Shown here piece by piece: positions 4,105 to 60,519 of a stretch of 64,000 nucleotides of DNA. The position numbers were made by a program, and so were the translations under genes. The notes beneath the pieces are model-generated. The model made no database searches. It saw nothing but the letters and a program-made list of their open reading frames with translations, and was not told where the DNA came from. The DNA comes from Candidatus Sulfotelmatobacter sp. (GTDB lineage: Bacteria; Patescibacteriota; Saccharimonadia; Saccharimonadales; UBA4665). The stretch covers positions 60,324-124,323 of the forward strand of contig DATJNI010000007.1 of the NCBI GenBank assembly GCA_035508275.1, given 5' to 3'. How positions within the stretch are numbered: position 1 is the stretch's first letter; each line of letters starts with the position of its first letter.

Positions 4105-6951
4105 TCAGTTGACTGTGAATGATACCGCCGGCGTGGTTACGCTTTGACCTGAACTATCTTTAACTATAGCGCTAACGCTGTGAGTACCCTTCGCTCCGGA
4201 TGTCTTAAATTGCACTTCAAACGGCGAGGAAGTTACGGCTGAGCCATAGTCTGCGCCGTCTACTACATATTGGACTGAGGTTATACTGGCGCCGGTTGAA
4301 GGAGTGGCGTTAACTTGCAGCTTGGTGTCAGCGGTTAGAATTTCACCGATAGTGGGGTTTAGTATTGTGGCACTTAAGGGACTCGTAGCGTTTGATTTAT
4401 TACCACCAGAGTTACTTACTTTAATAGTAACTGGTGGTGAGGTAGCCATAGCACCAGTACCGTCCTGGACGACTGCTGTAATAGTGTACGACCCGTTTGC
4501 TACAGAGTTAGTATTCCAGGCATAGGTGTAAGGTGCCGAAGAGATTTGCTTGCCTAGTTTAGCGCCGTTTAGGTAGAATTGAACGTCAGCGACACTTGTT
4601 CTAGGGTCAGTTGTGGCGCTAGCTTGAATGTTTACAGTCCCTGAAACGGTTACATTATTAGCTGGGCTGTTTATCGTAGCGGTAGGCGGTGCCAGTGGCT
4701 GTGTGTTGTTATTACCGGTCTCGCTAATGTAGAGGAGTCTTGGAGAGTCGGTAACGGGAACTTCTATTACAATGTTGGTTGAGCTTCTGGAAATAACGTT
4801 GACGCTTGGTGTGGCGCCAGTTAGAGGATCGTAGAAAGTCATAGAGTTAATATTGTTACCATTAACTCCACCGATGGTTAAGCGGTAGGTTTCAGCCGGC
4901 AAGTCAAATTTGGTTTCGCCGGGAGCGCTAGAGTTGTATATCTTCTCTAGATCAGAGGTTTGAACATATATTGGTACTAAGAAACTGGAATTAGTTAACT
5001 GGTAAGGATAGAAGGAAAAGACGTTTCGGTTGTATAGGTCGGGGTACTGGGCAGTGCCATTGCCGCTGAACTGGATATTACCGGAGTAGTCGTCAATTTC
5101 GTTGAGGGCCAGGGATTGCGGTTTGGTAATGGTTTGGGCAGCCATGAAAGGCTTTAGGAAGTTATGGATGGTCTGGGTAATGAAGCCGCCCTGAGAGTCA
5201 CCTGGGTAAACATTGGGGTTAGAGTCAACTGCACTAATGAAACTGCTATCTACTAGATTAAGGCTGTATGGCCCCTGCTTTGAATCCTTGGCTGCGTAAA
5301 AGTCTATTTGCTTGGCACCCTTATTTACAAAGTCGGATAGGTATCGTATCTGAGCCTTGGCTTGTATATATTCACGGTCATTATTAGTGTAGTTATATTT
5401 GCCGTTATTCGGGTCGCCGCCGTTTCTAGGTGGAGTTAAACCGTAGTTATATTCGGTTATCCAAACTTGGGCGGTGTGGCCTTGAGGGTTGGCTGCATTC
5501 GAGCCGTGCAATGATCCACCAAGAGTCGTGGATATTGGAGACATGTCTCTAAGTAGTGACTGGTCGGTGAAGGCAGACAGAGACTGTTCTGGATAGTGAG
5601 CAACAAAGCTTGGCGTAAAGGTGTCTACGTTAACAGTCTTACCTCCAACAGTCTTGGTGGTATAGTCTCGCTGCATTAGGGCGTTCAGAGGATAAGACTG
5701 ATCATATTTTAAGTCAGCCGGATAAACCTTCTCGTTCTGGTATGGGTGCTTGCTTAGAGCTGTAATAGTGCTGGGAAGGGTTGAGCCACTGGGAAATGGT
5801 GACTGCGAAGCAAAACCATTGGTAATCTGGACACCGGTGAAACCATTAGCCGGGTTAGCTATAAAGTTACCTGTGTCAGCTAATATCTGAGCAGTGGTAC
5901 TACCGGTTAGGGTAGGGTTGGGTGGTGAAGAGTAGTAATTAGCGGCAGCTAAAAAGTTTGAGCCAAAGCTTAGCTCATTCCAAACTTCCAGGTCAAAGTT
6001 GTTATTACCAAGTGCGGCCTTAGCAGTACTAGCGACTCCGTTAACATAAGCCAGCCAGCCCTTGCTGTCAGTTGTGTAAACCGGGTTGGGCGTAACACCG
6101 TCAGCTAGAAAGGGTTTCTGGAAGGGGGCATAAGTAAGAATGGTCATTTTGCCCGAGAGATCGGCTGTGCTGTCTATTGGCTTGGACAGAGTAACTGTGT
6201 TGCCACTGACGGCAGTAAACAGGATTCCGGCCATGACTCCGTTATCTTCTATGCCAGTTTTTCCTGGCACTATCTGTTTGGCGGTCGAACTCGATACTGT
6301 GACCGTCGTGTCACCGACTTTCGGCGTAACTGTATACGAACCAGTGAAGCTAGAATTTGGTACTGGGTTAGTGTCTCCGGCGTAGAGAATAATTAAGGGT
6401 CGGATGCCGTTGGCTTTTAGGGCGTCAATTTTAGTTGTGAGATCGCCTGCAGCAGTTGGGTTAACCTGGGTTGGATTAGCATAACTCATAAAGCCGCCCC
6501 AGTTGGTTCCAAGTCGAGCGTGGGTAAAGCCAGTGTCTTTTAGTAGGTGGGCGGTGTCACTGGCTTCATTGGCGTTAACGTTGAAGTTAATACCAACAGC
6601 GTTTAGCATGTCCGTGGCAGGGACAGTGTCTAGGTAAGCGTTTTGGGGCTGATCGTAGAAGGATCTGTCGCTAGCAGTTAGATTAGTTAGGTATGCCGGG
6701 TCAGTATAGTCTGTGACAGTACCGGCAAACGGTGTCGCAGCATGTCCACCTAGAATTAAGTAGGCACCAATTACGGCAAATACCGCTACGAAAACTGTGG
6801 CGGTAATTTTTGAAAAGATAAAGTTGGGCATTTTATCGTTTAGGCTGCCCTTGCCTTCTCCGACTGTCGCTGAACTGGGGGGAACACTACTTACTGGATT
6901 TGATTCTTTGGGGGTAGTATCAGGGTTATCCTGAGAGTCATTAATGGCCAT
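4105..6951 (-). CDS. membrane-anchored extracellular protein: clan GH-A-like glycoside hydrolase core plus two C-terminal Ig-like (Big-type) domains
   Basis: N-terminal TM helix (FSKITATVFVAVFAVIGAYLILGG). Candidate acid/base and nucleophile motifs DLEVWNELSFG and QVWITEYNYG, as in (beta/alpha)8 clan A hydrolases. Two C-terminal repeats of the type VSGTVNIQA...VQFYLNGAKLG...APYTYAWNT...NGSYTITAVVQD. Confidence 0.6.
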   Translation of the reverse strand: MAINDSQDNPDTTPKESNPVSSVPPSSATVGEGKGSLNDKMPNFIFSKITATVFVAVFAVIGAYLILGGHAATPFAGTVTDYTDPAYLTNLTASDRSFYDQPQNAYLDTVPATDMLNAVGINFNVNANEASDTAHLLKDTGFTHARLGTNWGGFMSYANPTQVNPTAAGDLTTKIDALKANGIRPLIILYAGDTNPVPNSSFTGSYTVTPKVGDTTVTVSSSTAKQIVPGKTGIEDNGVMAGILFTAVSGNTVTLSKPIDSTADLSGKMTILTYAPFQKPFLADGVTPNPVYTTDSKGWLAYVNGVASTAKAALGNNNFDLEVWNELSFGSNFLAAANYYSSPPNPTLTGSTTAQILADTGNFIANPANGFTGVQITNGFASQSPFPSGSTLPSTITALSKHPYQNEKVYPADLKYDQSYPLNALMQRDYTTKTVGGKTVNVDTFTPSFVAHYPEQSLSAFTDQSLLRDMSPISTTLGGSLHGSNAANPQGHTAQVWITEYNYGLTPPRNGGDPNNGKYNYTNNDREYIQAKAQIRYLSDFVNKGAKQIDFYAAKDSKQGPYSLNLVDSSFISAVDSNPNVYPGDSQGGFITQTIHNFLKPFMAAQTITKPQSLALNEIDDYSGNIQFSGNGTAQYPDLYNRNVFSFYPYQLTNSSFLVPIYVQTSDLEKIYNSSAPGETKFDLPAETYRLTIGGVNGNNINSMTFYDPLTGATPSVNVISRSSTNIVIEVPVTDSPRLLYISETGNNNTQPLAPPTATINSPANNVTVSGTVNIQASATTDPRTSVADVQFYLNGAKLGKQISSAPYTYAWNTNSVANGSYTITAVVQDGTGAMATSPPVTIKVSNSGGNKSNATSPLSATILNPTIGEILTADTKLQVNATPSTGASITSVQYVVDGADYGSAVTSSPFEVQFKTSGAKGTHSVSAIVKDSSGQSVTTPAVSFTVN

Positions 6952-21057: not shown

Positions 21058-22368
21058 ATGAAAATAGCTATTGTAGGCTATGGGCTTGAAGGAAAGTCTT
21101 CTTACGCTTACTTTTCTAAAGATCCAGCCAATGTAATAACTATCTGCGACAAAGATGAATCTATAGATACGCCGGCGGATACCTACAGGCATGTTGGTGA
21201 GGATTATCTTAAGTATTTAGAGGATTTTGATTTAATCGTCCGAACTGCCGGTTTAAATCCTAATCTTATCCTCGACGCCACCCCTGGAGTAGAAGATAAG
21301 ATTACAACTCAATTAAACGAGTTTTTGAGTGTTTGCCCTTCTAAAAATATTATTGGGGTTACTGGGACCAAGGGTAAGGGTACAACCGTAACGCTAATAT
21401 ATAAAATGTTGGTTAAAGCTGGAGTTAAAGCAGTTTTAGGTGGCAATATTGGTATACCTTTTTTAAGCCTTCTTGACGATATCCAAGATGATACTTATGT
21501 GGTGCTGGAGCTATCTAGTTTTCAACTGTGCGATCTTAAGGAAAAGTCGCCACATATTGCAGTCTGTTTAATGGTTGTGCCAGAACATCTTAACTGGCAT
21601 GACAGTGTTGAGGATTACTACAAGGCTAAGTCACAGTTATTTATTCATCAGTCAGCCGAGGATACTGCTATTTGTTATGCGGACAATAAAGCTTCGGTGG
21701 ATATTGCTAGGCAAAGCCCAGGTAAGCTTATTCCCTACTTCAAAGCACCTGGTGCAGAGGTCAAAGATGGCACCATTATTATTGAGTCTAATGAGATATG
21801 CCCGGTATCTGATGTAAAGCTTCTTGGTGAGCACAATCTTCAAAACATCTGTGCAGCCCTCACTAGTGTCTGGCAAGTAAGTCAGGATGTATCCTCTTTC
21901 AGGCAAGTTATTACCTCCTTCACGGGGTTAGAGCATAGGCTTGAATTAGTGCGGGAGGTTGACGGCGTCAAATACTATAACGATTCCTTCGCCTCAAGCC
22001 TTAAAGCAACTGAGGCGGCAGTTGAAGCTATTGAGGGCAAGAAGGTGCTGATAGTTGGAGGATTTGATAGAAAACTTAATATTGATGAATTTGGTGAATA
22101 TGTTGTGAATCACCAAGATGAATTTAGGAAAATATTAGTTATTGGTGAGATTGGGCAGAAGTTAAAGGAACTATTTGATAGGGTAAAGTTTGATAATTAT
22201 GACTACAGTGGCGATTTGAGAGATATGACTCAGATTGTAAAGAGAGCTAAGGAGCTGGCTGCATCTGGGGACAGCGTGGTGCTTTCTCCTGGTTTTGCCA
22301 GTTTTGATATGTTTAAAAACTTTGAGGATAGGGGCAACCAGTTTAAGCAGGCAGTGAGCAGCCTATGA
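21058..22368 (+). CDS. murD: Mur ligase, UDP-N-acetylmuramoyl-L-alanine--glutamate ligase (MurD type; D- or L-Glu specificity unresolved)
   Basis: N-terminal Rossmann-like KIAIVGYGLEG. ATP site GVTGTKGKGTT. LELSSFQL. 436 aa. Confidence 0.85.
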   Translation: MKIAIVGYGLEGKSSYAYFSKDPANVITICDKDESIDTPADTYRHVGEDYLKYLEDFDLIVRTAGLNPNLILDATPGVEDKITTQLNEFLSVCPSKNIIGVTGTKGKGTTVTLIYKMLVKAGVKAVLGGNIGIPFLSLLDDIQDDTYVVLELSSFQLCDLKEKSPHIAVCLMVVPEHLNWHDSVEDYYKAKSQLFIHQSAEDTAICYADNKASVDIARQSPGKLIPYFKAPGAEVKDGTIIIESNEICPVSDVKLLGEHNLQNICAALTSVWQVSQDVSSFRQVITSFTGLEHRLELVREVDGVKYYNDSFASSLKATEAAVEAIEGKKVLIVGGFDRKLNIDEFGEYVVNHQDEFRKILVIGEIGQKLKELFDRVKFDNYDYSGDLRDMTQIVKRAKELAASGDSVVLSPGFASFDMFKNFEDRGNQFKQAVSSL

Positions 22369-23651
22369 GTAAATACACTAGTTTTATATTCAAAGACTAC
22401 CAATTCAGCGAGGAGAGCAAAGAGCTTAACCTAACATACTCATACGACAATACTCTTGTCTTAAAGGAAACTTTTAAGTTCGATTTCGAGTATGCGTCTC
22501 ACGATAAGAAGGCTCTAGATCGAGCCATGCAACTACTTTTTTTTGTAGCTGGAGTTTCTTATTACAAAATGTACCAGGCTAGCCAAATTACAGTTGAAAA
22601 GGGACAGATTTCTAAAGAACTGTCTGAATACCTCAATAAGACATATCTGAAGGGACTGGGAGAATTTTTCTATGTAAACAACCTGGATCCAAATTTTAGT
22701 ATTAACTTCCCTGTTAATGGTTCACTTGGTGAAGTTTTAGAAGTTAGTAATAATTCTGGGAAAATGGTCGGGATTGGCGGAGGTAAGGATTCGCTTGTCA
22801 GTGTGGAGCTTTTACGCCAGCAGGAAGACGTGAGCACCTGGAGCCTAAATCATAGAGACCAGCTGGAGCCACTAGTTAACACTATTGGCCTAAAACATTT
22901 CTGGGTTGATAGAAAACTAGATCCACAAATACTAGAATTAAATGCCCAGGATGCTCTAAACGGTCACATACCAATATCGGCAATTCTTAGCGCTGTAGGA
23001 CTCGCGGTTTGTATTCTGACAGGCAACAGGGATAGTGTTGTGTCCAACGAAAGTTCAGCCAGCGAACCTAGTCTTAACTACCGGGGTGTGGACATAAATC
23101 ACCAGTACTCTAAGTCTATAGAATACGAGAGGTCTTTTCAGAGTGTTATAAAGAATTACTTTGGGGATAGCCTAATGTACTACTCCCTGCTTAGACCATT
23201 AAGTGAGCTTAGGATAGCTGAGATATTTGCGAAAGCTTACTTCGATAAATACGCTGGTGTTTTTAGCTCGTGTAACAGGGCCTTTCGCCACGGTGAGCAT
23301 CATCTTTTTTGGTGTGGAGAGTGCCCTAAGTGCGCGTTTGTTTTTATGGCTTTGACGCCTTTTATGGATAAGGAGAAGTTGGTTAAACTGTGGGGCGGCA
23401 AGAATTTGCTGCTTGATCCTAGCTTAGAGCCAACATATAGACAGCTGCTTGGGATATCCGGGAATAAGCCGCTGGACTGCGTAGGTGAAGTTAAAGAATC
23501 TAGAGCAGCTATGAAGTTCTGTCAGAAGATTTATCCTGAACTCAATAAATATGTTTTTGAAATACCTGAGGATTATGATTTTCGGGCTTGGTCTGAGCAC
23601 GCTATGCCTGAGGAAATATTTAATTTCCTAAAACGGCGACTCAATGCTTGA
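22365..23651 (+). CDS. PP-loop-like (GGGKDS) ATP-utilising protein, candidate MurL-type UDP-MurNAc-L-Ala-L-Glu epimerase
   Basis: ATGA start/stop overlap with murD. MVGIGGGKDSLVS PP-loop-like motif. C-terminal CGECPKCAFVF. The functional assignment is an inference from context. Confidence 0.5.
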   Translation: MSKYTSFIFKDYQFSEESKELNLTYSYDNTLVLKETFKFDFEYASHDKKALDRAMQLLFFVAGVSYYKMYQASQITVEKGQISKELSEYLNKTYLKGLGEFFYVNNLDPNFSINFPVNGSLGEVLEVSNNSGKMVGIGGGKDSLVSVELLRQQEDVSTWSLNHRDQLEPLVNTIGLKHFWVDRKLDPQILELNAQDALNGHIPISAILSAVGLAVCILTGNRDSVVSNESSASEPSLNYRGVDINHQYSKSIEYERSFQSVIKNYFGDSLMYYSLLRPLSELRIAEIFAKAYFDKYAGVFSSCNRAFRHGEHHLFWCGECPKCAFVFMALTPFMDKEKLVKLWGGKNLLLDPSLEPTYRQLLGISGNKPLDCVGEVKESRAAMKFCQKIYPELNKYVFEIPEDYDFRAWSEHAMPEEIFNFLKRRLNA

Positions 23652-24462
23652 TAAAGTTATTGGCTGATCTGATTAGGTTATCAAATAGGGCGCAAACCGT
23701 TAAAGGACCTACCCCTCCCTTGGTTGGTGTAATGGTTAGATCGAGCCTGTTGTCATAGACATCTTCATCAACGTCTCCAACCGTCTTGCCATTTTCACTG
23801 GCAACCCCAGCGTCAACCACAACAGCGTCTTGTTTGATCATGTCGGATTTTATGAGTCCAGGGACACCAGTTGCGGTGATAATAACATCTGCGTTCTTTA
23901 CTTCATCAGCAATGTCTTTGGATTGCCTGGAGAGAACTATTGGGTTTTGGCCAGATGCTTTTAGAGCCTTCTCTAGAGGTGCACCAACTAGCCTTCCCTT
24001 GCCTACTATAACGATGTTTTTGCCATCAAGATTTACGTTGTAGCCTGCTAGCAACCATAGAATTGCTAGTGGTGTAGCGGGATCAAAATCTGTTTTCTTT
24101 GCCAGTCCGTCGACATCTTTGTTGGGTGCGACTAGATCAACTATTTCTTCTGTTCTTTCCTCGTTAGCAATAGGCAATTGAACAATTATTCCATGAATTG
24201 AATCGTCTGAATTAAGTTTTTTTATTAGCTCAGGTACTTCTTCTATTTCCACTCTGAAAAGCTCTACTTCAATTCCTATCTCTTCGCCGTATTTCTTTTT
24301 TAGTCTTAAATATATCTCAATGACAGGGTCATGTATGGTCACGATAATAGCTAGCTTGGGGTTAATGCCGTTAGCTTGTTTTAAAGCTCTAACCTGTTTC
24401 GCTTGGCGTTCTTTAATGTACCCGGATAATTCCAGACCGTTGAGGTATTTCACGTAGTGCAT
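23641..24462 (-). CDS. folD: bifunctional methylenetetrahydrofolate dehydrogenase/cyclohydrolase
   Basis: LAIIVT, IHGIIVQLP, VIVGKGRLVGAPL and GGVGPLTV motifs; 273 aa. Confidence 0.9.
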   Translation of the reverse strand: MHYVKYLNGLELSGYIKERQAKQVRALKQANGINPKLAIIVTIHDPVIEIYLRLKKKYGEEIGIEVELFRVEIEEVPELIKKLNSDDSIHGIIVQLPIANEERTEEIVDLVAPNKDVDGLAKKTDFDPATPLAILWLLAGYNVNLDGKNIVIVGKGRLVGAPLEKALKASGQNPIVLSRQSKDIADEVKNADVIITATGVPGLIKSDMIKQDAVVVDAGVASENGKTVGDVDEDVYDNRLDLTITPTKGGVGPLTVCALFDNLIRSANNFIKH

Positions 24463-25836: not shown

Positions 25837-27177
25837 TCAATTTTCAATACCTACTGCAGAAACCGCACCACCAATAATTAATAGTCCTGCAGTAAGAGTT
25901 ATGGCGTCATGAAAACCGCTAAGGGATATACTACGTCCGACAATAACCCCTATTACGGCTATGGCAATAAGACCAGCGATTCTCGAGATAGCGTTATTAA
26001 CAGCCGAGGCAATACCGGAATGACTTTGCTCTATTTTGCCAAGAACAGCTGCGGTTAATGGAGCAACGGTCATCGATAACCCAAGAGAGAAAACTAGTAT
26101 TCCGGGCAACAGTTTGCTTGTGTAGTCTATTGGCAGCGTAACCCGAGATATTAATATGAAGCCGATACCTGCAATTAGTGGGCCTAGGCTCATAAAAAGT
26201 CTTGGGCCATAAATGCCTGCCAATTTGCCAAACTGAGGTGATAGTAAAAACATAATGATAGTAACTGGCAGTAGGGATAGTCCTGCATCAAAAGCTGAAT
26301 AACCGCCCACCTCTTGAAGGAATATAACTATTAAAAAGGTGGCGACGGATAAGCCGCCGTAGATTGCTACAGTTGCTATATTACCGACGGTGAAGTTGCG
26401 TATTTTAAATAAAGATATTGGTAGCATAGCGTTCTTGATTTTTGATTCATAGGTAATGAAAGCAATTAGAAGTAGTACGCCAAGTATAAATGGAAGTAGT
26501 ATTTTCAAGCTGTGCCAGCCGTAATCTGGTTGCTCTATTAACGCAAAGACTGTTCCAAGGAGCCCTAAGCTACATAGAAGTGCCCCTATGCCGTCAAGAC
26601 GAGTTCTAGTTCTTTTCTCACTCAGTTCTACTTTAGTCAGTAGCCAGAGACAAAGAATTATTGGAATAACATTTATTGCGAAAATTAGTCTCCAGGTAAA
26701 ATCGTCGACTAGAAAACCACCAAGTAGAGGACCAATAATAAAGGCGATGCCGGTCCAAGCTGTCCAAGTACCGATAGCTTTACTTTTTGCTGCGCCTTCA
26801 AAATTAGAGATAATTATTGCGAGAGAACTTGGTACCAGTAATGCTCCACCTGCTCCTTGAAGAGCACGGGCAATAATTAAAAATGTGTGAGTAGGAGCAA
26901 GTGCGCAAAGTATGGAAGCTAGACCGAAAATTAGAAGTCCAATAGCTAATATTTTCTTACGACCAAAAATGTCAGATAATGAGCCGGCAAGTAGAATTAA
27001 TGAGCCAAGCGTCAGAAGATAGGCATCTACAATCCACTGTTGTACTGCTAGTCCGCCACCAAGGTGACGTGTAATTGAGGGCAGAGCTACATTAACTACC
27101 GAACCATCCAGAAATGCAACGAATGATGCAAGGATACTAATTACTAGGATAAGTCTTAACTTACGATCCATAGCCAT
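25837..27177 (-). CDS. MFS transporter, DHA2 (EmrB/QacA-like) type
   Basis: LDGSVVNVALPSI, GSLSDIFGRKK and about 13-14 hydrophobic helices; 446 aa. Confidence 0.85.
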   Translation of the reverse strand: MAMDRKLRLILVISILASFVAFLDGSVVNVALPSITRHLGGGLAVQQWIVDAYLLTLGSLILLAGSLSDIFGRKKILAIGLLIFGLASILCALAPTHTFLIIARALQGAGGALLVPSSLAIIISNFEGAAKSKAIGTWTAWTGIAFIIGPLLGGFLVDDFTWRLIFAINVIPIILCLWLLTKVELSEKRTRTRLDGIGALLCSLGLLGTVFALIEQPDYGWHSLKILLPFILGVLLLIAFITYESKIKNAMLPISLFKIRNFTVGNIATVAIYGGLSVATFLIVIFLQEVGGYSAFDAGLSLLPVTIIMFLLSPQFGKLAGIYGPRLFMSLGPLIAGIGFILISRVTLPIDYTSKLLPGILVFSLGLSMTVAPLTAAVLGKIEQSHSGIASAVNNAISRIAGLIAIAVIGVIVGRSISLSGFHDAITLTAGLLIIGGAVSAVGIEN

Positions 27178-27179
27178 AA

Positions 27180-27710
27180 CTAGAGGCCAACCTTATAATG
27201 AACTAATATGGTACCTTGTTTGTTAAGAAGTTTATGATCAAGTAAACGCAGTCTTTTCTTGACTAGTTCATCGCTAAACAGGTTGATCCCCTGAGTAAAT
27301 ATTTGTGGTTCAATAGTTAGGTATATCTCACTGACTAAGTCGTCTCTTAGAAAAGATGTGTAGGTGAATCCCCCTCCAAGTAACAGCATGGATTTAAAGC
27401 CCTCTTTTTCGAGGCGAAGTACTAGTTCTTTTGGTGATTCATTGGTAAATTCTAGGACACCCTTTTTGCTGTCGTTCTTGTATTGGCTGGGGTTGCTAGT
27501 TAATACAACTCGCAGTTTAGCGGGGTGCAATTTAATATTGGGGCGTATTTTTTCATATGTTTTTCGACCAAAAACAATTAAATTATGTTTAGCAACTAGT
27601 TTGGATAGGTGGTCTTGGTCTTCGTTTGATATCCAGCTGCCCGTACCTACCTTTGTGCCTTCAGTAATCTTGCCATTTATGGAGGTCACGGCCGACATTA
27701 TAATTATCAT
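27180..27710 (-). CDS. RibD C-terminal domain / dihydrofolate-reductase-like reductase
   Basis: SAVTSINGKIT, IVFGRKTYE and LLLGGGFTYTSFLRDDLVSEIYLTIEPQIF match the RibD_C/DHFR-like pattern. Confidence 0.75.
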   Translation of the reverse strand: MIIIMSAVTSINGKITEGTKVGTGSWISNEDQDHLSKLVAKHNLIVFGRKTYEKIRPNIKLHPAKLRVVLTSNPSQYKNDSKKGVLEFTNESPKELVLRLEKEGFKSMLLLGGGFTYTSFLRDDLVSEIYLTIEPQIFTQGINLFSDELVKKRLRLLDHKLLNKQGTILVHYKVGL

Positions 27711-27711
27711 A

Positions 27712-28464
27712 CTATTTGTTTGTCCTCTTACCGGGCTGCCAATCGACGCTGCTTAAAAAGGGTTCAAATAAATCATCTTTTCTATCCATGTTTATGTAGG
27801 CAAGTTCGTCGGCAGTAGGATTTCTATCCTGAAAGTGGACAAATGGCACATCACTAATTATGGCAACGGGGGTCTGTTCTTTTCCTTCGCCCATGGCGAG
27901 GACACCTGAGGCCGCAAGTCCTTCGGCAACACTTGCTTGGCTGACATCGAATGGCCTACCAAATAAGTCTGGTTTTCCTATATAGTCATTGAGTGCTCGA
28001 AACCCACTGTAGCCTAATGCAATACCGTGCGTACCTCGACGAAGCGGCATACAGGTACTATCGGTAATGATTACGCCGACTTTTTTTAAATTAAACCTCT
28101 CTTTTAAGTAGACTCTAACGTCATTGGCCGTTTGCTGGGGATCCTTCGGCCAAAGTACAAAGTTCCCTCCACCATTCGATTCATCTATGCCTGCTGCTGC
28201 GATGAGAGTATTCCTGACAATGCTGAAATGATAACCGTATTTGCTCAGCTCGCCAGGTAAATAAAAATCTGATTCTTTTTTGATAAGTTCATTTTTATTG
28301 CTTGATTCTATTGGCAAGACTCTGCCCTCACAAAGGGAAACAACCTTGGATGTAATAAGTAAGATACTTCCTTCCGAAAAATCAGTAACAAAAGTGTCAA
28401 GCAACTTTAAAAGGCTCGTGGAGTTAGCTTGCACTCTGTCGGTTTTGATGGCTATAACTTGCAA
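27712..28464 (-). CDS. CofE-like gamma-glutamyl ligase family protein (F420-0:glutamate ligase homologue)
   Basis: ITSKVVSLCEGR, AAGIDESNGGG and ITDSTCMPLRRGTHGIALG are CofE-family hallmarks; 250 aa. Confidence 0.75.
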   Translation of the reverse strand: MQVIAIKTDRVQANSTSLLKLLDTFVTDFSEGSILLITSKVVSLCEGRVLPIESSNKNELIKKESDFYLPGELSKYGYHFSIVRNTLIAAAGIDESNGGGNFVLWPKDPQQTANDVRVYLKERFNLKKVGVIITDSTCMPLRRGTHGIALGYSGFRALNDYIGKPDLFGRPFDVSQASVAEGLAASGVLAMGEGKEQTPVAIISDVPFVHFQDRNPTADELAYINMDRKDDLFEPFLSSVDWQPGKRTNK

Positions 28465-28476
28465 TGATTTATCCTC

Positions 28477-29565
28477 TTACTTCATAGACGGGTATGCGCT
28501 CAACACTCGAGCATATAGATCGTCTACAACTCTTTTTTGGGCATCTCCCGTGGATGCATAATGGTCCAGCCCAGGGGCAGCATTTACTTCAAAAACTGAG
28601 TAGTGCGCTTCAGGGCTAGCTATATCATCGCACGCTAAATCTATACCACAAAGACGTAAACCAAAATTTGCCGCTATGTATGCGCCTAAGTCCCTCCACC
28701 GGCGATGGGTTGATTTTGTTACGTCCTCAGCCTTGCCGCCAGCCGATAAATTAGATATCGTCATAAGCTCTAAGGATTGTTCCTCCGGTAGAATACTAAG
28801 CAAGTCTAAGTCCTGACGACCAATTTGTCTGGCTATTCTAGTGTCATTGGGGTTGATGGTTGTATCACGACCTTCTTCGAGGTACTCTTTTTGAACCTCA
28901 GCAATTAGCTCCCATATAGTACTTGTACCATCACCTGTTACAGAAAGGGGTATTCTACGATATGAGCTTATTAGTGTTCCATCCAATATGACTAGGCGAT
29001 AGTCGGGCATGGCCACGGCCTCTTCGACGACCATTACCCGTACCTTATCTCTTTCGAAAGAAGCAATAACCTCACCTGCTTCTTGGGCATTGTCAACACG
29101 CATCACACCAATTCCTTTAGACCCATCAACACGTTTGATGTAAGCGGGAAAGCCGAGCACTCCCTCAATGTATTCAATGGCGGTATCTGACGTACGTAGC
29201 TCAGTGTTTCCTCGTCGCCTCTGAGATTCGCCTATTGTTTCTGCCCACCAAGGCAGAAGAAATTCTCGTCCTTCAGGCGTAGTTATACCGATTTGTTTTA
29301 GCATAAATTTGGCATGTCCCTTATCTCCCGCCAGTTCACTTGCTGCAGAGTTATTTAACCCAGGGTCATTGCCGTAAGTAAACCTAAAACTTCCGTCATC
29401 GTACGTTAATCTGGTTGTGTAGCCATACTCTGGCTCAACTATAAGCTCAACGACATTACCTAGTTCACCTCTATTAAAAAGCTCTATGGCTTTTCTCGTT
29501 AAATACGCATAGTGGGCATGAGAAATTACTTCACCATGAGGATTAGACATGTCACCTTCAGGCAT
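28477..29565 (-). CDS. ATP-grasp ligase (cyanophycin-synthetase/RimK-like fold)
   Basis: GFPAYIKRVDGSKGIGV, VVEEAVAMPDYRLVILDG, TGDGTSTIWELI and FEVNAAPGL are typical ATP-grasp blocks. Confidence 0.7.
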   Translation of the reverse strand: MPEGDMSNPHGEVISHAHYAYLTRKAIELFNRGELGNVVELIVEPEYGYTTRLTYDDGSFRFTYGNDPGLNNSAASELAGDKGHAKFMLKQIGITTPEGREFLLPWWAETIGESQRRRGNTELRTSDTAIEYIEGVLGFPAYIKRVDGSKGIGVMRVDNAQEAGEVIASFERDKVRVMVVEEAVAMPDYRLVILDGTLISSYRRIPLSVTGDGTSTIWELIAEVQKEYLEEGRDTTINPNDTRIARQIGRQDLDLLSILPEEQSLELMTISNLSAGGKAEDVTKSTHRRWRDLGAYIAANFGLRLCGIDLACDDIASPEAHYSVFEVNAAPGLDHYASTGDAQKRVVDDLYARVLSAYPSMK

Positions 29566-29684
29566 AACAATATTATATAAACTAATTGAGCTCTCGTCGA
29601 ATTTGTCTATAAAATATATTAGACGTTGGTATTAACTACTGTGACCTATCAAAATATTCTTATCACCAGTGCTATACTTTTATT

Positions 29685-29900
29685 ATGTCTGATTGGCACG
29701 CACATCTAGGAATTTGGTTGCCGGTTATTATATTCGTTGTTCTGCTTCTTTTTGCTTTTGAGATATGGATGATTGTTGATGCGGCTCTAAACAAAAAGAT
29801 TAGCGATAAAGCAAAAGTTTGGTGGATAGTAGGAATGCTTATTATCCATCCCTTTGTGGCAATTGTTTACTTTTTTACTGATCACAAAAAGCGAAGCTAA
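29685..29900 (+). CDS. small membrane protein, PLD-nuclease/cardiolipin-synthase N-terminal-like domain
   Basis: Two TM helices with the EIWMIVDA...KVWWIVGMLIIHPFVAIVYFF pattern; 71 aa. Confidence 0.6.
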   Translation: MSDWHAHLGIWLPVIIFVVLLLFAFEIWMIVDAALNKKISDKAKVWWIVGMLIIHPFVAIVYFFTDHKKRS

Positions 29901-30817
29901 AATACCTCTGCCAGCATACATCTAACTCCGCCCCCTCCAACTTCTTGGATGGTTGGAACGGGTATATGTACTAATTTACCGAATTTACTTAGCATTTGTT
30001 TTTGTTCTTCGTTGTAAGCACTAAAGGCGGTTTCGCTCATAATAATTACTGGTTGGTCGTTCGAAGGTTGCAGCTGCAAAATGTTGCCGCAGAAGCAGCT
30101 AACCTGATCCAAGCTAATGTCTACGACGGTTTTGTTTAGTTCTTTTAGCTTATTTAGTAAGTCATTTCTTTCGTTCTGGTCGGTTACGGACTCGGTGCAG
30201 ATAACTGCGAAGTCTTTACCAAGATTCATTGATACATTTGTATGATAAATTGGTTTACCAACTTTATCTACGGCATGAAAGTACATGGCTTGGTAACCCA
30301 TCTTTTGGCACCAGAGATCGAGGGTTTGTTTGGATGATCTTGGTGAAGCTATGACAAAAGCAAATTTGTTTATTCTATCTAGAACTAGACTGCCGGTTCC
30401 TTCTAGAAATTGACCGCTATTTTCTTCGTTTGTTAAATCTAGCGTGTTAGTGACATCAAAGTCTAATTTGCTCAGAGCTGCCTTAAGAACATCTACTTGC
30501 CTTTCAGCCCGTCTGTTTTCTGCTAGCATCGGATAAATGACTAAGGTGCCGTCCTCGTGTGTTGTAAACCAGTTATTGGGAAATATTTCGTCTGGAGTTA
30601 TATCTTTAGGACTCGGTAGTATTTCAACCTCTATGCCGTTATGTTTTAGGGTTGAGACCACGCCGTTAAATTCATTTAAAGCTTGTTCTCTTATTTCCTT
30701 TTCTGTCTCGCCTTGACCAGACAAGTCGTGCTGAAATGGATCACTGTCTGCGGTTTGGGGATTAAAGCCGAAGTGGCTAGGTTCAACCATTATTACTTTT
30801 TTTGCTATTTGAGACAT
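29897..30817 (-). CDS. guanidino-group-modifying (amidinotransferase/arginine deiminase superfamily) enzyme, CtlX-like
   Basis: C-terminal GGGGVRCMLAEVF with the superfamily catalytic Cys. N-terminal VIMVEPSHFGFNPQT. 306 aa. Confidence 0.7.
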   Translation of the reverse strand: MSQIAKKVIMVEPSHFGFNPQTADSDPFQHDLSGQGETEKEIREQALNEFNGVVSTLKHNGIEVEILPSPKDITPDEIFPNNWFTTHEDGTLVIYPMLAENRRAERQVDVLKAALSKLDFDVTNTLDLTNEENSGQFLEGTGSLVLDRINKFAFVIASPRSSKQTLDLWCQKMGYQAMYFHAVDKVGKPIYHTNVSMNLGKDFAVICTESVTDQNERNDLLNKLKELNKTVVDISLDQVSCFCGNILQLQPSNDQPVIIMSETAFSAYNEEQKQMLSKFGKLVHIPVPTIQEVGGGGVRCMLAEVF

Positions 30818-37934: not shown

Positions 37935-39215
37935 ATGAATGACACTGCTATTGCTGATTTAATTAAGGCCGAGGAACAGAGACAAAGGGATGGTTTGGAG
38001 TTAATTCCTTCCGAGAACTATGTTAGCCGCGAGGTTTTGGATGCTATGGGTAGCGTGCTAACTAATAAGTATTCTGAGGGTTATCCGGGTAAACGCTACT
38101 ACGGTGGTCAGGAAAATACCGATAAAGTTGAACAGCTGGCTATAGATAGGGCTAGGGAGCTGTTTAAGGCTGATCATGCCAATGTCCAGCCACATTCTGG
38201 TGCACCAGCTAATGAGGCTGTCTATAGCGCTTGGTTGGAGCCAGGAGATAGTGTTCTAGCTATGGATCTGGGTCACGGCGGACATTTAACTCATGGTGCG
38301 CCAGTCACCCGCTCTGCTCATCTATATAACTTTGTTCGGTACAAGATGAAAGATGTTGAAACTGGCGAGATAGATTATGCCGAGCTTAGAGAGTTAGCCA
38401 AAAAACATCAGCCTAAGATTATCCTAGCTGGCTTTAGTTCTTACCCAAGAGAACTAGACTATGCCAAGTTTGCTGAGATCGGTAACGAAGTTGGAGCACT
38501 ACTGATGGCGGATATGGCTCATATTGCTGGGCTAATAGCTGGGGGTGTAGCAGCTAATCCTTTCGATTACGGCTTTCATGTTATTACTTGCACTACCCAT
38601 AAGACTCTTAGAGGACCAAGAGGGGGTATGGTTCTAACTAAGGGGACTGTTTCGAATCCACTTAAGGCGCCTGAGAAAACGATCGAGAATATACCAACTC
38701 TTATAGACAGAGCTGTCTTCCCTGGTATGCAAGGTGGACCACATGAGCATATTATTGCTGCAAAAGCCGTAGCTTTTTATGAGGCGCTGCAGCCGGAGTT
38801 TAAGGAGTATGCCCAACAAATTGTTAAGAATGCTTCTGCTCTAGCCGAGGCTTTAAAAGCCTTAGGTTTTAAGTTAATAACTAATGGCACTAGCAACCAT
38901 CTTATGGTAGCCGATGTTTATTCTAGCTTTGGTTTGCACGGCGGTGAGGTGGAAGAAGCACTGGATAAAATCAACTTAACGCTTAATAAGAATGCTATCC
39001 CTGATGATCCCCTGCCACCTTTTAGGCCAAGCGGCGTAAGGCTTGGTACGCCAGCTATAACAACCAGAGGACTGAAAGAGCAAGATATGGAAAAAATAGC
39101 TAAGTGGATGAAACAAGCAGTCGATGCACGAAGTGATGAGCAGGCGCTAGCTAAACTAAGAGAAGAGGTTCGTTCTTACGCCACTACCTTCCCTCTGCCT
39201 AGTGATAAAAAGTAA
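37935..39215 (+). CDS. glyA: serine hydroxymethyltransferase
   Basis: LELIPSENYVS, YSEGYPGKRYYGG and the PLP-lysine context TTHKTLRGPRGG; 426 aa. Confidence 0.95.
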   Translation: MNDTAIADLIKAEEQRQRDGLELIPSENYVSREVLDAMGSVLTNKYSEGYPGKRYYGGQENTDKVEQLAIDRARELFKADHANVQPHSGAPANEAVYSAWLEPGDSVLAMDLGHGGHLTHGAPVTRSAHLYNFVRYKMKDVETGEIDYAELRELAKKHQPKIILAGFSSYPRELDYAKFAEIGNEVGALLMADMAHIAGLIAGGVAANPFDYGFHVITCTTHKTLRGPRGGMVLTKGTVSNPLKAPEKTIENIPTLIDRAVFPGMQGGPHEHIIAAKAVAFYEALQPEFKEYAQQIVKNASALAEALKALGFKLITNGTSNHLMVADVYSSFGLHGGEVEEALDKINLTLNKNAIPDDPLPPFRPSGVRLGTPAITTRGLKEQDMEKIAKWMKQAVDARSDEQALAKLREEVRSYATTFPLPSDKK

Positions 39216-59721: not shown

Positions 59722-60519
59722 TTAACCTAAGGTCTTCTGGATTTGCTTAATGGAGTTTGTTCTATTTGGTTTGTCACAATTTATGAGTACAGCGTTGAAT
59801 TGTCTTGGTCCGTTTGTTTCAAGTAAGTTCTTAGTTTTAATATTATCTCTCCAGCGTGGCAGTACGCTTTCTAAACTAATTCCTAGAGAAGCGTTGAGTG
59901 CACCGCACATGCCAATGTCAGTAATATGTGCTGTGCCTCTTGGTAGAATGCGAGCATCGGCTGTTGGTACGTGCCAGTGATCGCCAACCACTAGATTGAC
60001 TCGGCCGTCTAAGTAATGGCCAATGATTACCTTTTCGCTCGAGTAGTCTCCATGGAAATTAACTACTATGGCGTCTAGTTCTTGGTCCTGATATTCACTG
60101 AGGATCTTGTCTATTACTTTTAGTGGGTTATCTAGCTGCAAACCTGCATCTTTGCCAACTATTTTACCTTGAAGGCTAGCTACTAGGGTTGTTTTACCGT
60201 TTTTGGCAATTAACTTTTGACCTAATCCAGGAGTGCCTTCTGGGTAGTTGGCTGGGCGGATTATTGGTTGTTTAGGATCTTGCAGCGCTGGATATATTTC
60301 CCTATTGGTAAGGCTCCAGTTGCCACCGCTACAGAAGTCTACGCCAGCTTTTAGTAGTCTTTTAAAGTCAGCAATGCTAGTGCCTTTGCCGCCTGTTACG
60401 TTTTCCGCTTGAGCTATTACTAGATCAATCTTTTCCTCATTTATGAGGGTTGGTAAAACTTCTTCAACTACTTCAAGGCCAACCTCCCCCATGACGTCGC
60501 CGATATAGAGGATGTTCAT
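59722..60519 (-). CDS. ymdB: YmdB-like metallophosphoesterase (2',3'-cyclic-nucleotide phosphodiesterase family)
   Basis: MNILYIGDVMG, GGNWS, NFHGDYSSEK and GDHWHVPTAD metallophosphoesterase motifs. Directly downstream of rny, as in Firmicutes. Confidence 0.85.
   Translation of the reverse strand: MNILYIGDVMGEVGLEVVEEVLPTLINEEKIDLVIAQAENVTGGKGTSIADFKRLLKAGVDFCSGGNWSLTNREIYPALQDPKQPIIRPANYPEGTPGLGQKLIAKNGKTTLVASLQGKIVGKDAGLQLDNPLKVIDKILSEYQDQELDAIVVNFHGDYSSEKVIIGHYLDGRVNLVVGDHWHVPTADARILPRGTAHITDIGMCGALNASLGISLESVLPRWRDNIKTKNLLETNGPRQFNAVLINCDKPNRTNSIKQIQKTLG

Follow-up and report, generated by a model that had tools for sequence, protein, structure and literature searches.

The locus considered here raises the question of which cofactor, if any, is handled by a compact cluster of four minus-strand genes (25837–29565) encoding an ATP-grasp ligase, a CofE-like ligase, a small reductase and a carrier of the major facilitator superfamily (MFS). 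The cluster lies in a stretch of 64,000 nucleotides (referred to throughout as the window; positions 60,324 to 124,323 of contig DATJNI010000007.1) from assembly GCA_035508275.1, which is filed as Candidatus Sulfotelmatobacter sp. and placed by GTDB in the Saccharimonadales of the Patescibacteriota. An earlier reading of the window (the original prediction) had described a salvage-and-tailoring module for a folate-, pterin- or deazaflavin-like cofactor, encoded by four genes separated by 12, 1 and 2 nt. These spacings match the open reading frame (ORF) coordinates exactly. The folate part of the proposal stands, while the pterin and deazaflavin parts find no support, as no cofD was found and the neighboring genes in other lineages are those for canonical FolC, DHFR_1 and 5-formyltetrahydrofolate cyclo-ligase (5-FCL). 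The cluster is read here, with moderate confidence, as an operon for the salvage, reduction and trapping of folate which includes an ATP-grasp ligase acting on the folate tail. Folate metabolism is among the best-mapped of pathways, still having orphan activities and missing transporters, and the Patescibacteria, which account for much of bacterial diversity, depend on scavenged cofactors.

Folate genes of the genome

The genome assembly is 713 kb in size, in 20 contigs, and is 96% complete. Homologues of its proteins carry names in public sources that point to the Patescibacteria/Saccharimonadales. No protein exceeded the cut-off of the canonical FolC model TIGR01499 anywhere in these 713 kb, with only weak matches to Mur ligases being obtained. 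Neither folP, thyA nor cofD was found in the genome, and tblastn gave no match in it to canonical DHFR_1, 5-FCL or Vut_1. The sole DHFR_1 match genome-wide was the third gene of the cluster itself. The original prediction had noted that neither folC nor folA is seen in the window and had suggested an inventory of these genes together with folP and cofD; its observation is now extended to the whole genome.

Domains of FolD, GlyA and ThyX are present. Two of the corresponding genes, both consumers of the cofactor, had previously been named in the window and were confirmed by Pfam, namely folD (methylenetetrahydrofolate dehydrogenase/cyclohydrolase, 23641–24462, minus strand, with THF_DHG_CYH and THF_DHG_CYH_C domains) and glyA (serine hydroxymethyltransferase, 37935–39215, plus strand, SHMT E 5.9e-160). 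With folC, folP and thyA absent and folD, glyA and ThyX present, the organism uses tetrahydrofolate and cannot make it, which supports its description as a folate scavenger or folate auxotroph. The same gaps leave the cluster as the only means of folate reduction and glutamylation in the genome. ThyX returns tetrahydrofolate and not dihydrofolate, and a reductase in this setting would therefore serve salvaged oxidized folate rather than recycling.

Outside the window, contig C15 of the same genome carries a 772-aa open frame (about 12.1–14.4 kb, minus strand) with a thymidylate-kinase-like N-terminus (FEGPEGAGKTT) and two tandem Thy1/ThyX domains (E 6.5e-17 and 1.3e-16). This frame may represent a Tmk-ThyX-ThyX fusion.

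Reductase and gamma-glutamyl ligase

The third gene of the cluster (27180–27710, minus strand) encodes a protein of 176 aa which matches RibD_C (E 1.6e-14) and also scores 27.9 bits against DHFR_1 (PF00186), over the Pfam cut-off of 25. Its top match in the PDB, covering the full length of the protein (residues 9–174), is the dihydrofolate reductase of Thermotoga maritima (1CZ3, E 2.3e-23), and the motifs GRKTYE and LLGGG are visible. On the basis of both a Pfam gathering score and a solved DHFR structure, the protein is predicted to be a Thermotoga-type dihydrofolate reductase and is the only DHFR candidate of the genome. The earlier call of a RibD_C/DHFR-like reductase is thus retained at the level of domains and refined as to identity. 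The additional match to RibD_C is of a kind that divergent DHFRs give, and the window's reductase and that of T. maritima (1CZ3/1D1G) both occur in ThyX-using organisms. Judged by family membership and by published work on relatives, the enzyme would reduce imported folate or dihydrofolate to tetrahydrofolate. The genes folA, glyA and folD have been reported in genomes of the Candidate Phyla Radiation (CPR), and CPR folA genes of another type are functional (PMC11974145).

The second gene (27712–28464, minus strand) begins with TTG and encodes a protein of 250 aa with a match to PF01996 (F420_ligase, E 1.7e-32). Its top NCBIfam model is TIGR04132, “putative folate metabolism gamma-glutamate ligase” (257.6 bits, residues 1–243 on model positions 1–240), with a score about twice that obtained from the CofE equivalog TIGR01916 (128.5 bits). 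Both scores are under the respective cut-offs, which are 350 bits (trusted) for TIGR04132 and 180.65 bits for TIGR01916; the latter places the protein outside the F420 family, and the former is a point against its assignment to the folate family. The genomic features that define the FolC2 type are present, in that the genome has no TIGR01499 protein over the cut-off and no CofD, and the gene clusters with a folate gene, the DHFR gene lying 1 nt downstream. Family members elsewhere adjoin folP, DHFR-like genes and 5-FCL, with one homologue overlapping folP. Homologues number about 4300, of which the 120 best-scoring ones listed are 57–67% identical, and many homologues carry the JGI label “putative folate metabolism gamma-glutamate ligase” or that of dihydrofolate synthase/folylpolyglutamate synthase (DHFS/FPGS).

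Replacement of FolC by CofE homologues was predicted and validated in Chlamydia, where CT611 complements an Escherichia coli folC mutant (PMC1971073). The gene in the window is most likely of this known FolC2 type and would be the folylpolyglutamate synthase of its genome. The domain call of the original prediction, a CofE-like gamma-glutamyl ligase, is accordingly correct, and the gene is a further example of a described type rather than a novel one. By the same reasoning from relatives, the enzyme is expected to add gamma-linked glutamates, trapping the cofactor in the cell, and the tail would improve its use by FolD, GlyA and ThyX. The proposed logic of reduction followed by glutamylation holds. 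A DHFR together with FolC2 in a CPR genome is an already known kind of core.

The CofE-like gene is patchily distributed among class-level relatives (11 of 151 genomes). In relatives it often has a RibD_C-type reductase and a carrier of the Vut_1 family as neighbors, and across 150 class-level relatives the CofE-like and DHFR-like genes are mostly non-adjacent. A comparable arrangement is the chlamydial cluster of CT611 (FolC2; COG1478, TIGR04132) with folA, which has in common with the window the CofE fold, a genome lacking FolC and the F420 pathway, and a DHFR neighbor. The host of the window differs in being a free-living or episymbiotic Patescibacterium without folP and folK, for which salvage and not de novo synthesis applies. 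The chlamydial cluster has neither the ATP-grasp ligase nor the carrier that accompany FolC2 in the window. The operon would work like the chlamydial folA–folC2 pair to which a carrier and a second, CofF/MptN-like ligase have been added.

If the pair of ligases were read literally as CofE with a CofF/MptN-like partner, the cluster would tailor F420, a deazaflavin or a methanopterin-like cofactor. PF01996 is named for the F420 ligase, and a gamma-ligase joined to an ATP-grasp alpha-ligase mirrors CofE/CofF. Such a role is nevertheless very improbable, given the lack of CofD, a CofE equivalog score half that of FolC2 and under its cut-off, the match of the reductase to a bona fide DHFR, a 713 kb genome equipped with FolD, GlyA and ThyX, and neighbors which across lineages are canonical FolC, DHFR_1 and 5-FCL.

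A conserved protein of about 172 aa is encoded directly 3′ of the FolC2-like gene in four lineages (L015, ~4.2–4.7 kb; L023, 5476–5997; L032, ~2.2–2.7 kb; and L092 of genome G074, 5716–6234) and is absent from the window's genome. It has no Pfam match, looks NlpC/P60-like by motifs alone (GLNC..., GDLxWFG, HV) and could be a tail hydrolase.

ATP-grasp ligase

The first gene (28477–29565, minus strand) begins with ATG and encodes a protein of 362 aa with a RimK domain in Pfam. Its best NCBIfam match is to the ATP-grasp part of cyanophycin synthetase (E 6.5e-39), followed by GshAB and N-acetylglutaminylglutamine synthetase, all of them far under the cut-offs. The cyanophycin synthetase model TIGR02068 gave 133.6 bits where 850 are required, and only model positions 235–471 were covered; RimK (TIGR00768) gave 54.2 against 143.4 bits and MptN/CofF (NF040720) 33 against 350 bits. 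Profile matches in the PDB were led by the G domain of CphA1/CphA2 and by GshAB, after which came RimK, LysX/ArgX and Ddl as sequence or fold matches. An AF2 (AlphaFold2) model with a predicted local distance difference test score (pLDDT) of 92 retrieved ATP-grasp ligases in Foldseek at a probability of 1.0, the top one being the CphA1 G domain (TMq 0.69–0.73), and RimK structures rank beneath CphA and GshAB. The window protein retains the ATP/Mg residues K144, E181 and E326-x-N328, which do not vary across 40 homologues. Fold and nucleotide/Mg site together place the protein in the ATP-grasp superfamily. By curated thresholds, the two ligases of the operon fall outside the CofE, RimK/CofF/MptN and cyanophycin synthetase families and, as the RimK/CofF/MptN thresholds are missed, the comparison with those enzymes is one of manner of working and not of membership.

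The closest relatives of the ATP-grasp protein add an amino acid to a carboxylate that they first phosphorylate, in most cases the alpha-carboxylate of a C-terminal residue. By analogy with CofF in F420 synthesis, MptN in methanopterin synthesis, RimK and the CphA G domain, the enzyme would convert a free carboxylate on the glutamate tail of folate into an acyl phosphate and then join a further amino acid to it, most likely an alpha-linked glutamate or another capping residue. CofE/CofF (F420) and MptN (tetrahydrosarcinapterin) pair the same two ligase folds, with the ATP-grasp enzyme there adding an alpha-linked glutamate cap, and together with MyfB they form the basis of the alpha-linkage analogy (PMC8141765). 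The window differs from them in that the cofactor would be folate, the ATP-grasp protein is nearer to the CphA G domain and to GshF, and the chemistry is a prediction.

The best match to the ATP-grasp core in both sequence and structure is the cyanophycin synthetase CphA1. In that enzyme the ATP-grasp domain extends the alpha-carboxylate and a FolC/Mur-type ligase acylates the side-chain carboxylate, which parallels the pairing of an ATP-grasp ligase with FolC. In contrast to CphA1, the window protein has only 362 aa, lacks both the N and the M domain and reaches 134 bits against 850; its partner is a separate gene, which can be of the CofE fold, and there is no cyanophycinase or polymer context. 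A split cyanophycin synthetase, composed of the ATP-grasp protein and a Mur-ligase-like FolC, was considered and rejected, as the partner has a FOL3_C domain and adjoins 5-FCL and DHFR, and other lineages have the unrelated CofE fold in its place. A formate-activating enzyme (PurT-like or FTHFS-like) is considered unlikely, every one of the nearest relatives being an amino-acid or peptide ligase.

The ATP-grasp family has about 355 members in the collection clustered at 90%, and 559 representative clusters at E <= 1e-30. The 355 homologues are labelled only as “hypothetical” or, generically, as a “D-Ala-D-Ala ligase-like/RimK-type ATP-grasp enzyme.” The gene was found in 11 of 401 phylum-level genomes, and no close orthologue was detected across 150 class-level relatives. 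Four proteins of about 650 aa (P0298, P0302, P0306, and P0309) are tandem double ATP-grasp proteins of which the C-terminal half matches the family (E about 1e-65), and the protein P0249 has an N-terminal extension with no Pfam match. Long open frames at CofE-like genes in G435 and G375 proved to be a start-codon artefact and a different subfamily, and not fusions.

Genomic neighborhood of the ATP-grasp family

A scan with the single ATP-grasp protein gave one locus, and a metagenome scan with an alignment of 40 sequences yielded 80 loci out of 519 confirmed relatives. Neighboring genes were labelled by phmmer, BLAST clustering and Pfam, and adjacency was scored within ±3 genes of the ATP-grasp gene in 59 lineages (non-redundant at 80% identity). 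FolC was found near the ATP-grasp gene in 10 of the 59 lineages and FolC2 in 12, never both. A DHFR, either canonical DHFR_1 or of the Thermotoga/RibD_C type, was nearby in 12 of the 59. Some folate gene was nearby in 28 lineages and an FPGS in 22. Chance adjacency is below 1% per lineage if one FPGS gene per 700–1400 genes is assumed, and under a rough binomial model (6/700) the figure of 22 out of 59 corresponds to a p of about 1e-30.

The partners also change. On a tree of 90 ATP-grasp sequences, the type of FPGS partner undergoes six changes by parsimony, and well-supported branches require at least three of these. A canonical FolC gene, convergent in orientation, overlaps that of the nearest homologue of the window's ATP-grasp protein (62% identity), and in the tree sister L009 the ATP-grasp gene is situated between DHFR_1 and FolC, with 5-FCL beyond. 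Other arrangements include Vut_1, a DHFR-like gene, FolC2 and ATP-grasp on one strand (G419); FolC2, ATP-grasp, a multi-pass membrane protein with no Pfam match and a DHFR-like gene (G298); a divergent 5-FCL adjoining ATP-grasp (G442); and ATP-grasp followed by FolC (G294). The adjacency outlasts the exchange of both partners for non-homologous analogues, and no other observation argues as strongly for a substrate common to the three enzymes. No folP was seen near the ATP-grasp loci examined, which indicates a context of salvage and not of synthesis. The original prediction had described the pairing of two ligases as non-standard for bacterial folate metabolism; this is borne out, and the pairing recurs widely across lineages. 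The combination which it had named as contrary evidence, a canonical folC or folA elsewhere in the genome along with a lack of co-occurrence of these genes, was not found.

That the ATP-grasp ligase acts on folate in some way is considered fairly probable, and that it extends the glutamate tail by an alpha-linked residue, which is proposed by analogy, is placed slightly below an even chance. Several observations weigh against both. Substrate and linkage are guesses, and the protein is far below the RimK, MptN and CphA family cut-offs. About half of the lineages have no folate neighbor, many of these being on short contigs, and the calling of neighbor genes was crude (longest ORFs, chosen greedily). 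At the level of whole genomes, the co-occurrence of ATP-grasp with FPGS is not significant (7 of 10 vs. 12 of 30, p = 0.10), and neither FolC nor a CofE-like gene was detected in three of the 10 other ATP-grasp-positive genomes (G177, G226, and G282). Within one family, the most divergent ATP-grasp orthologues, L104 (G177) and L105 (G226), adjoin an HhH-GPD DNA glycosylase, and further recurrent neighbors are PurL (six), PurQ (two) and a LOG-family protein (four). In the class sample, only the window's own genome has the ATP-grasp gene among the 11 with a CofE-like gene and, as most FolC2-bearing relatives are without it, the ATP-grasp ligase must be regarded as accessory. No fusion of ATP-grasp to CofE, FolC or DHFR was present among the 150 best representatives. 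The exact four-gene order was sought in 150 class-level relatives and was absent, and it was found in no other genome.

The recurrent non-folate neighbors, the lineages with no folate gene nearby and the non-significant genome-level co-occurrence would be accounted for if the ATP-grasp ligase acted on some other molecule (a small peptide, a protein C-terminus as with RimK, or a purine or cell-wall intermediate) and merely shared an operon or its regulation with folate genes. In keeping with this, copies also stand beside the DNA glycosylase or have a sortase and UvrC as neighbors, and an Actinosynnema genome has a copy on its own. It is rather unlikely, however, as the adjacency to FPGS persists through three to six swaps of FPGS family, and without a common substrate it is difficult to account for neighbors that include two unrelated DHFR types and 5-FCL. 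Moreover, PurL is divergent on the opposite strand, and purine synthesis is itself folate-dependent. A UDG (uracil-DNA glycosylase) gene is also nearby in one of genomes G177 and G226.

The three genomes with neither FolC nor a CofE-like gene may instead suggest that the ATP-grasp enzyme is an early-position glutamate ligase (DHFS/FPGS-like, acting on pteroate or folate monoglutamate) which backs up FolC or FolC2. Acyl phosphate and amine chemistry does fit the DHFS and FPGS reactions, as do the salvage contexts with DHFR. The presence of the ATP-grasp gene beside an FPGS in 22 of the 59 lineages points to complementary rather than redundant roles, though, and dihydropteroate is not expected with no folP at the loci or in the genome. 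The closest structural relatives, in addition, ligate C-terminal alpha-carboxylates. An early-position role is accordingly held to be distinctly improbable.

A tail ligase acting after FolC or FolC2 remains the preferred reading. Generalized to the whole family, it is proposed only tentatively: the ATP-grasp proteins would be an unrecognized folate-tail ligase which acts on the product of FolC or FolC2 and provides the folates of Patescibacteria with a non-canonical tail (alpha-linked glutamate or other amino-acid cap), accompanied by interchangeable undescribed importers (DHA2-type MFS, Vut_1/QPTR, or a 230-aa membrane protein). Alpha-carboxyl-linked folylpolyglutamate synthesis, in which alpha-linked glutamates are added beyond the gamma tail made by FolC, has been reported for E. 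coli according to the work cited in PMC1971073 (Ferone et al., 1986); it is the reaction proposed here and serves as an analogy only. Should the proposal be correct, this would be the first gene family for the chemistry reported in 1986 and could account for the alpha-linked folate tails described. To our knowledge, no gene has been assigned to the E. coli activity. No description of a link between ATP-grasp ligases and folate was found in the literature searched, subscription journals being outside its scope. The ATP-grasp ligase is the new part of the operon, the DHFR and FolC2 core being already known. As a candidate for a new folate-modifying enzyme it is concrete and can be cloned, and such an activity would alter how the folate pools of these organisms are measured and interpreted.

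MFS carrier

The fourth gene (25837–27177, minus strand) starts 2 nt past the DHFR stop codon and encodes a protein of 446 aa with an MFS_1 domain. It scores 248.9 bits against the DHA2/EmrB model TIGR00711, above the cut-off of 230.2 bits, and therefore belongs to the DHA2 type. No Pfam match to the folate-biopterin transporter family (BT1) or to another known folate carrier was obtained, with only MFS_1 and MFS_3 matching at E <= 0.01. Co-transcribed with the others to judge by its position, it may encode an importer of folate.

It is an even question whether the protein is instead an ordinary DHA2 drug or metabolite exporter which stands last in the operon by chance, with folate entering by another route; folate carrier and unrelated exporter are regarded as about equally likely. 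The DHA2 type is known for drug efflux, and the 713 kb genome has four further DHA2-type paralogues (24–35% identity; on contigs C15, C8, C9, and C6). No homologue of the MFS protein occurs near the ATP-grasp gene in 82 loci, the carrier being absent from all of the about 100 other loci examined in total, and among five sampled orthologues only one or two are beside a folate gene, those of L117 and L120 (72–80% identity) having no folate neighbor. All of this, like the missing match to the folate-biopterin family, speaks for an exporter and against import of folate. The gap of 2 nt between DHFR and MFS speaks for a carrier of folate, as do two orthologues elsewhere: P0401 starts 3 nt past a canonical FolC in one Saccharimonadales genome, and P0417 is convergent with a RibD_C gene. 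For two tight couplings in six genomes, a rough chance model gives a p of about 1e-3. A further sampled orthologue is 4.8 kb from DHFR_1. The same slot is filled elsewhere by Vut_1 or by an unannotated membrane protein. Orthologues are common in the Saccharimonadales (64–80% identity among the 120 best-scoring ones listed), and so wide a presence suggests a role of their own.

The loci of the FolC-following and the RibD_C-converging MFS orthologues are L119 (3600–6377) and L121 (5001–7043), with 70–73% identity. The Vut_1/QPTR family (PF02592) is known for the uptake of queuosine precursors, and carriers of this family are found beside DHFR-like and FolC2 genes in six genomes (L093, L095, L096, L100, L109, and L079). 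A membrane protein of about 230 aa with no Pfam match fills the carrier slot in L108 (8110–8805) and L081 (2242–2931). Both the Vut_1/QPTR neighbors and the 230-aa protein are candidate folate carriers, and the carriers beside the module offer testable candidates for folate uptake in lineages with no known one.

Transcription unit and flanking genes

Every junction of the cluster has a Shine-Dalgarno-like motif (GAGGA or AAGG) 8–13 nt ahead of the downstream start. A promoter-like site on the minus strand (TCGACG-17-TATAAT, 29572–29600) was identified by a consensus scan and in the sequence itself, its −10 box ending 6 nt from the ATG of the ATP-grasp gene, and the transcript may be leaderless or nearly so. 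Promoter-like sites in the region do not exceed the number expected from shuffled sequence, the match being one to the consensus only, and for this reason the promoter call is weak. A plus-strand ORF for a 71-aa membrane protein sits between the cluster and the upstream ctlX gene. This ORF and the promoter-like site indicate that the unit begins at the ATP-grasp gene, and the four genes are read as a single operon starting there. The base composition of the operon is the same as that of its surroundings.

The 71-aa ORF (29685–29900, plus strand; MSDWHAHLGIWLPVIIF...) has two predicted membrane helices and converges on the ctlX stop; it resembles small PLDc_N-type membrane proteins. The upstream gene (29897–30817, minus strand) encodes a citrulline utilization hydrolase, CtlX (NCBIfam, 360.7 bits against a cut-off of 334). 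On the other side of the operon, at 21058–23651 on the plus strand, a murD-type ligase gene overlaps a gene matching the Xanthomonadales MurL epimerase model NF041275 (E 4.5e-105, under the cut-off of 700), in agreement with a separate MurD2/MurL assignment made by the reader responsible for the original prediction.

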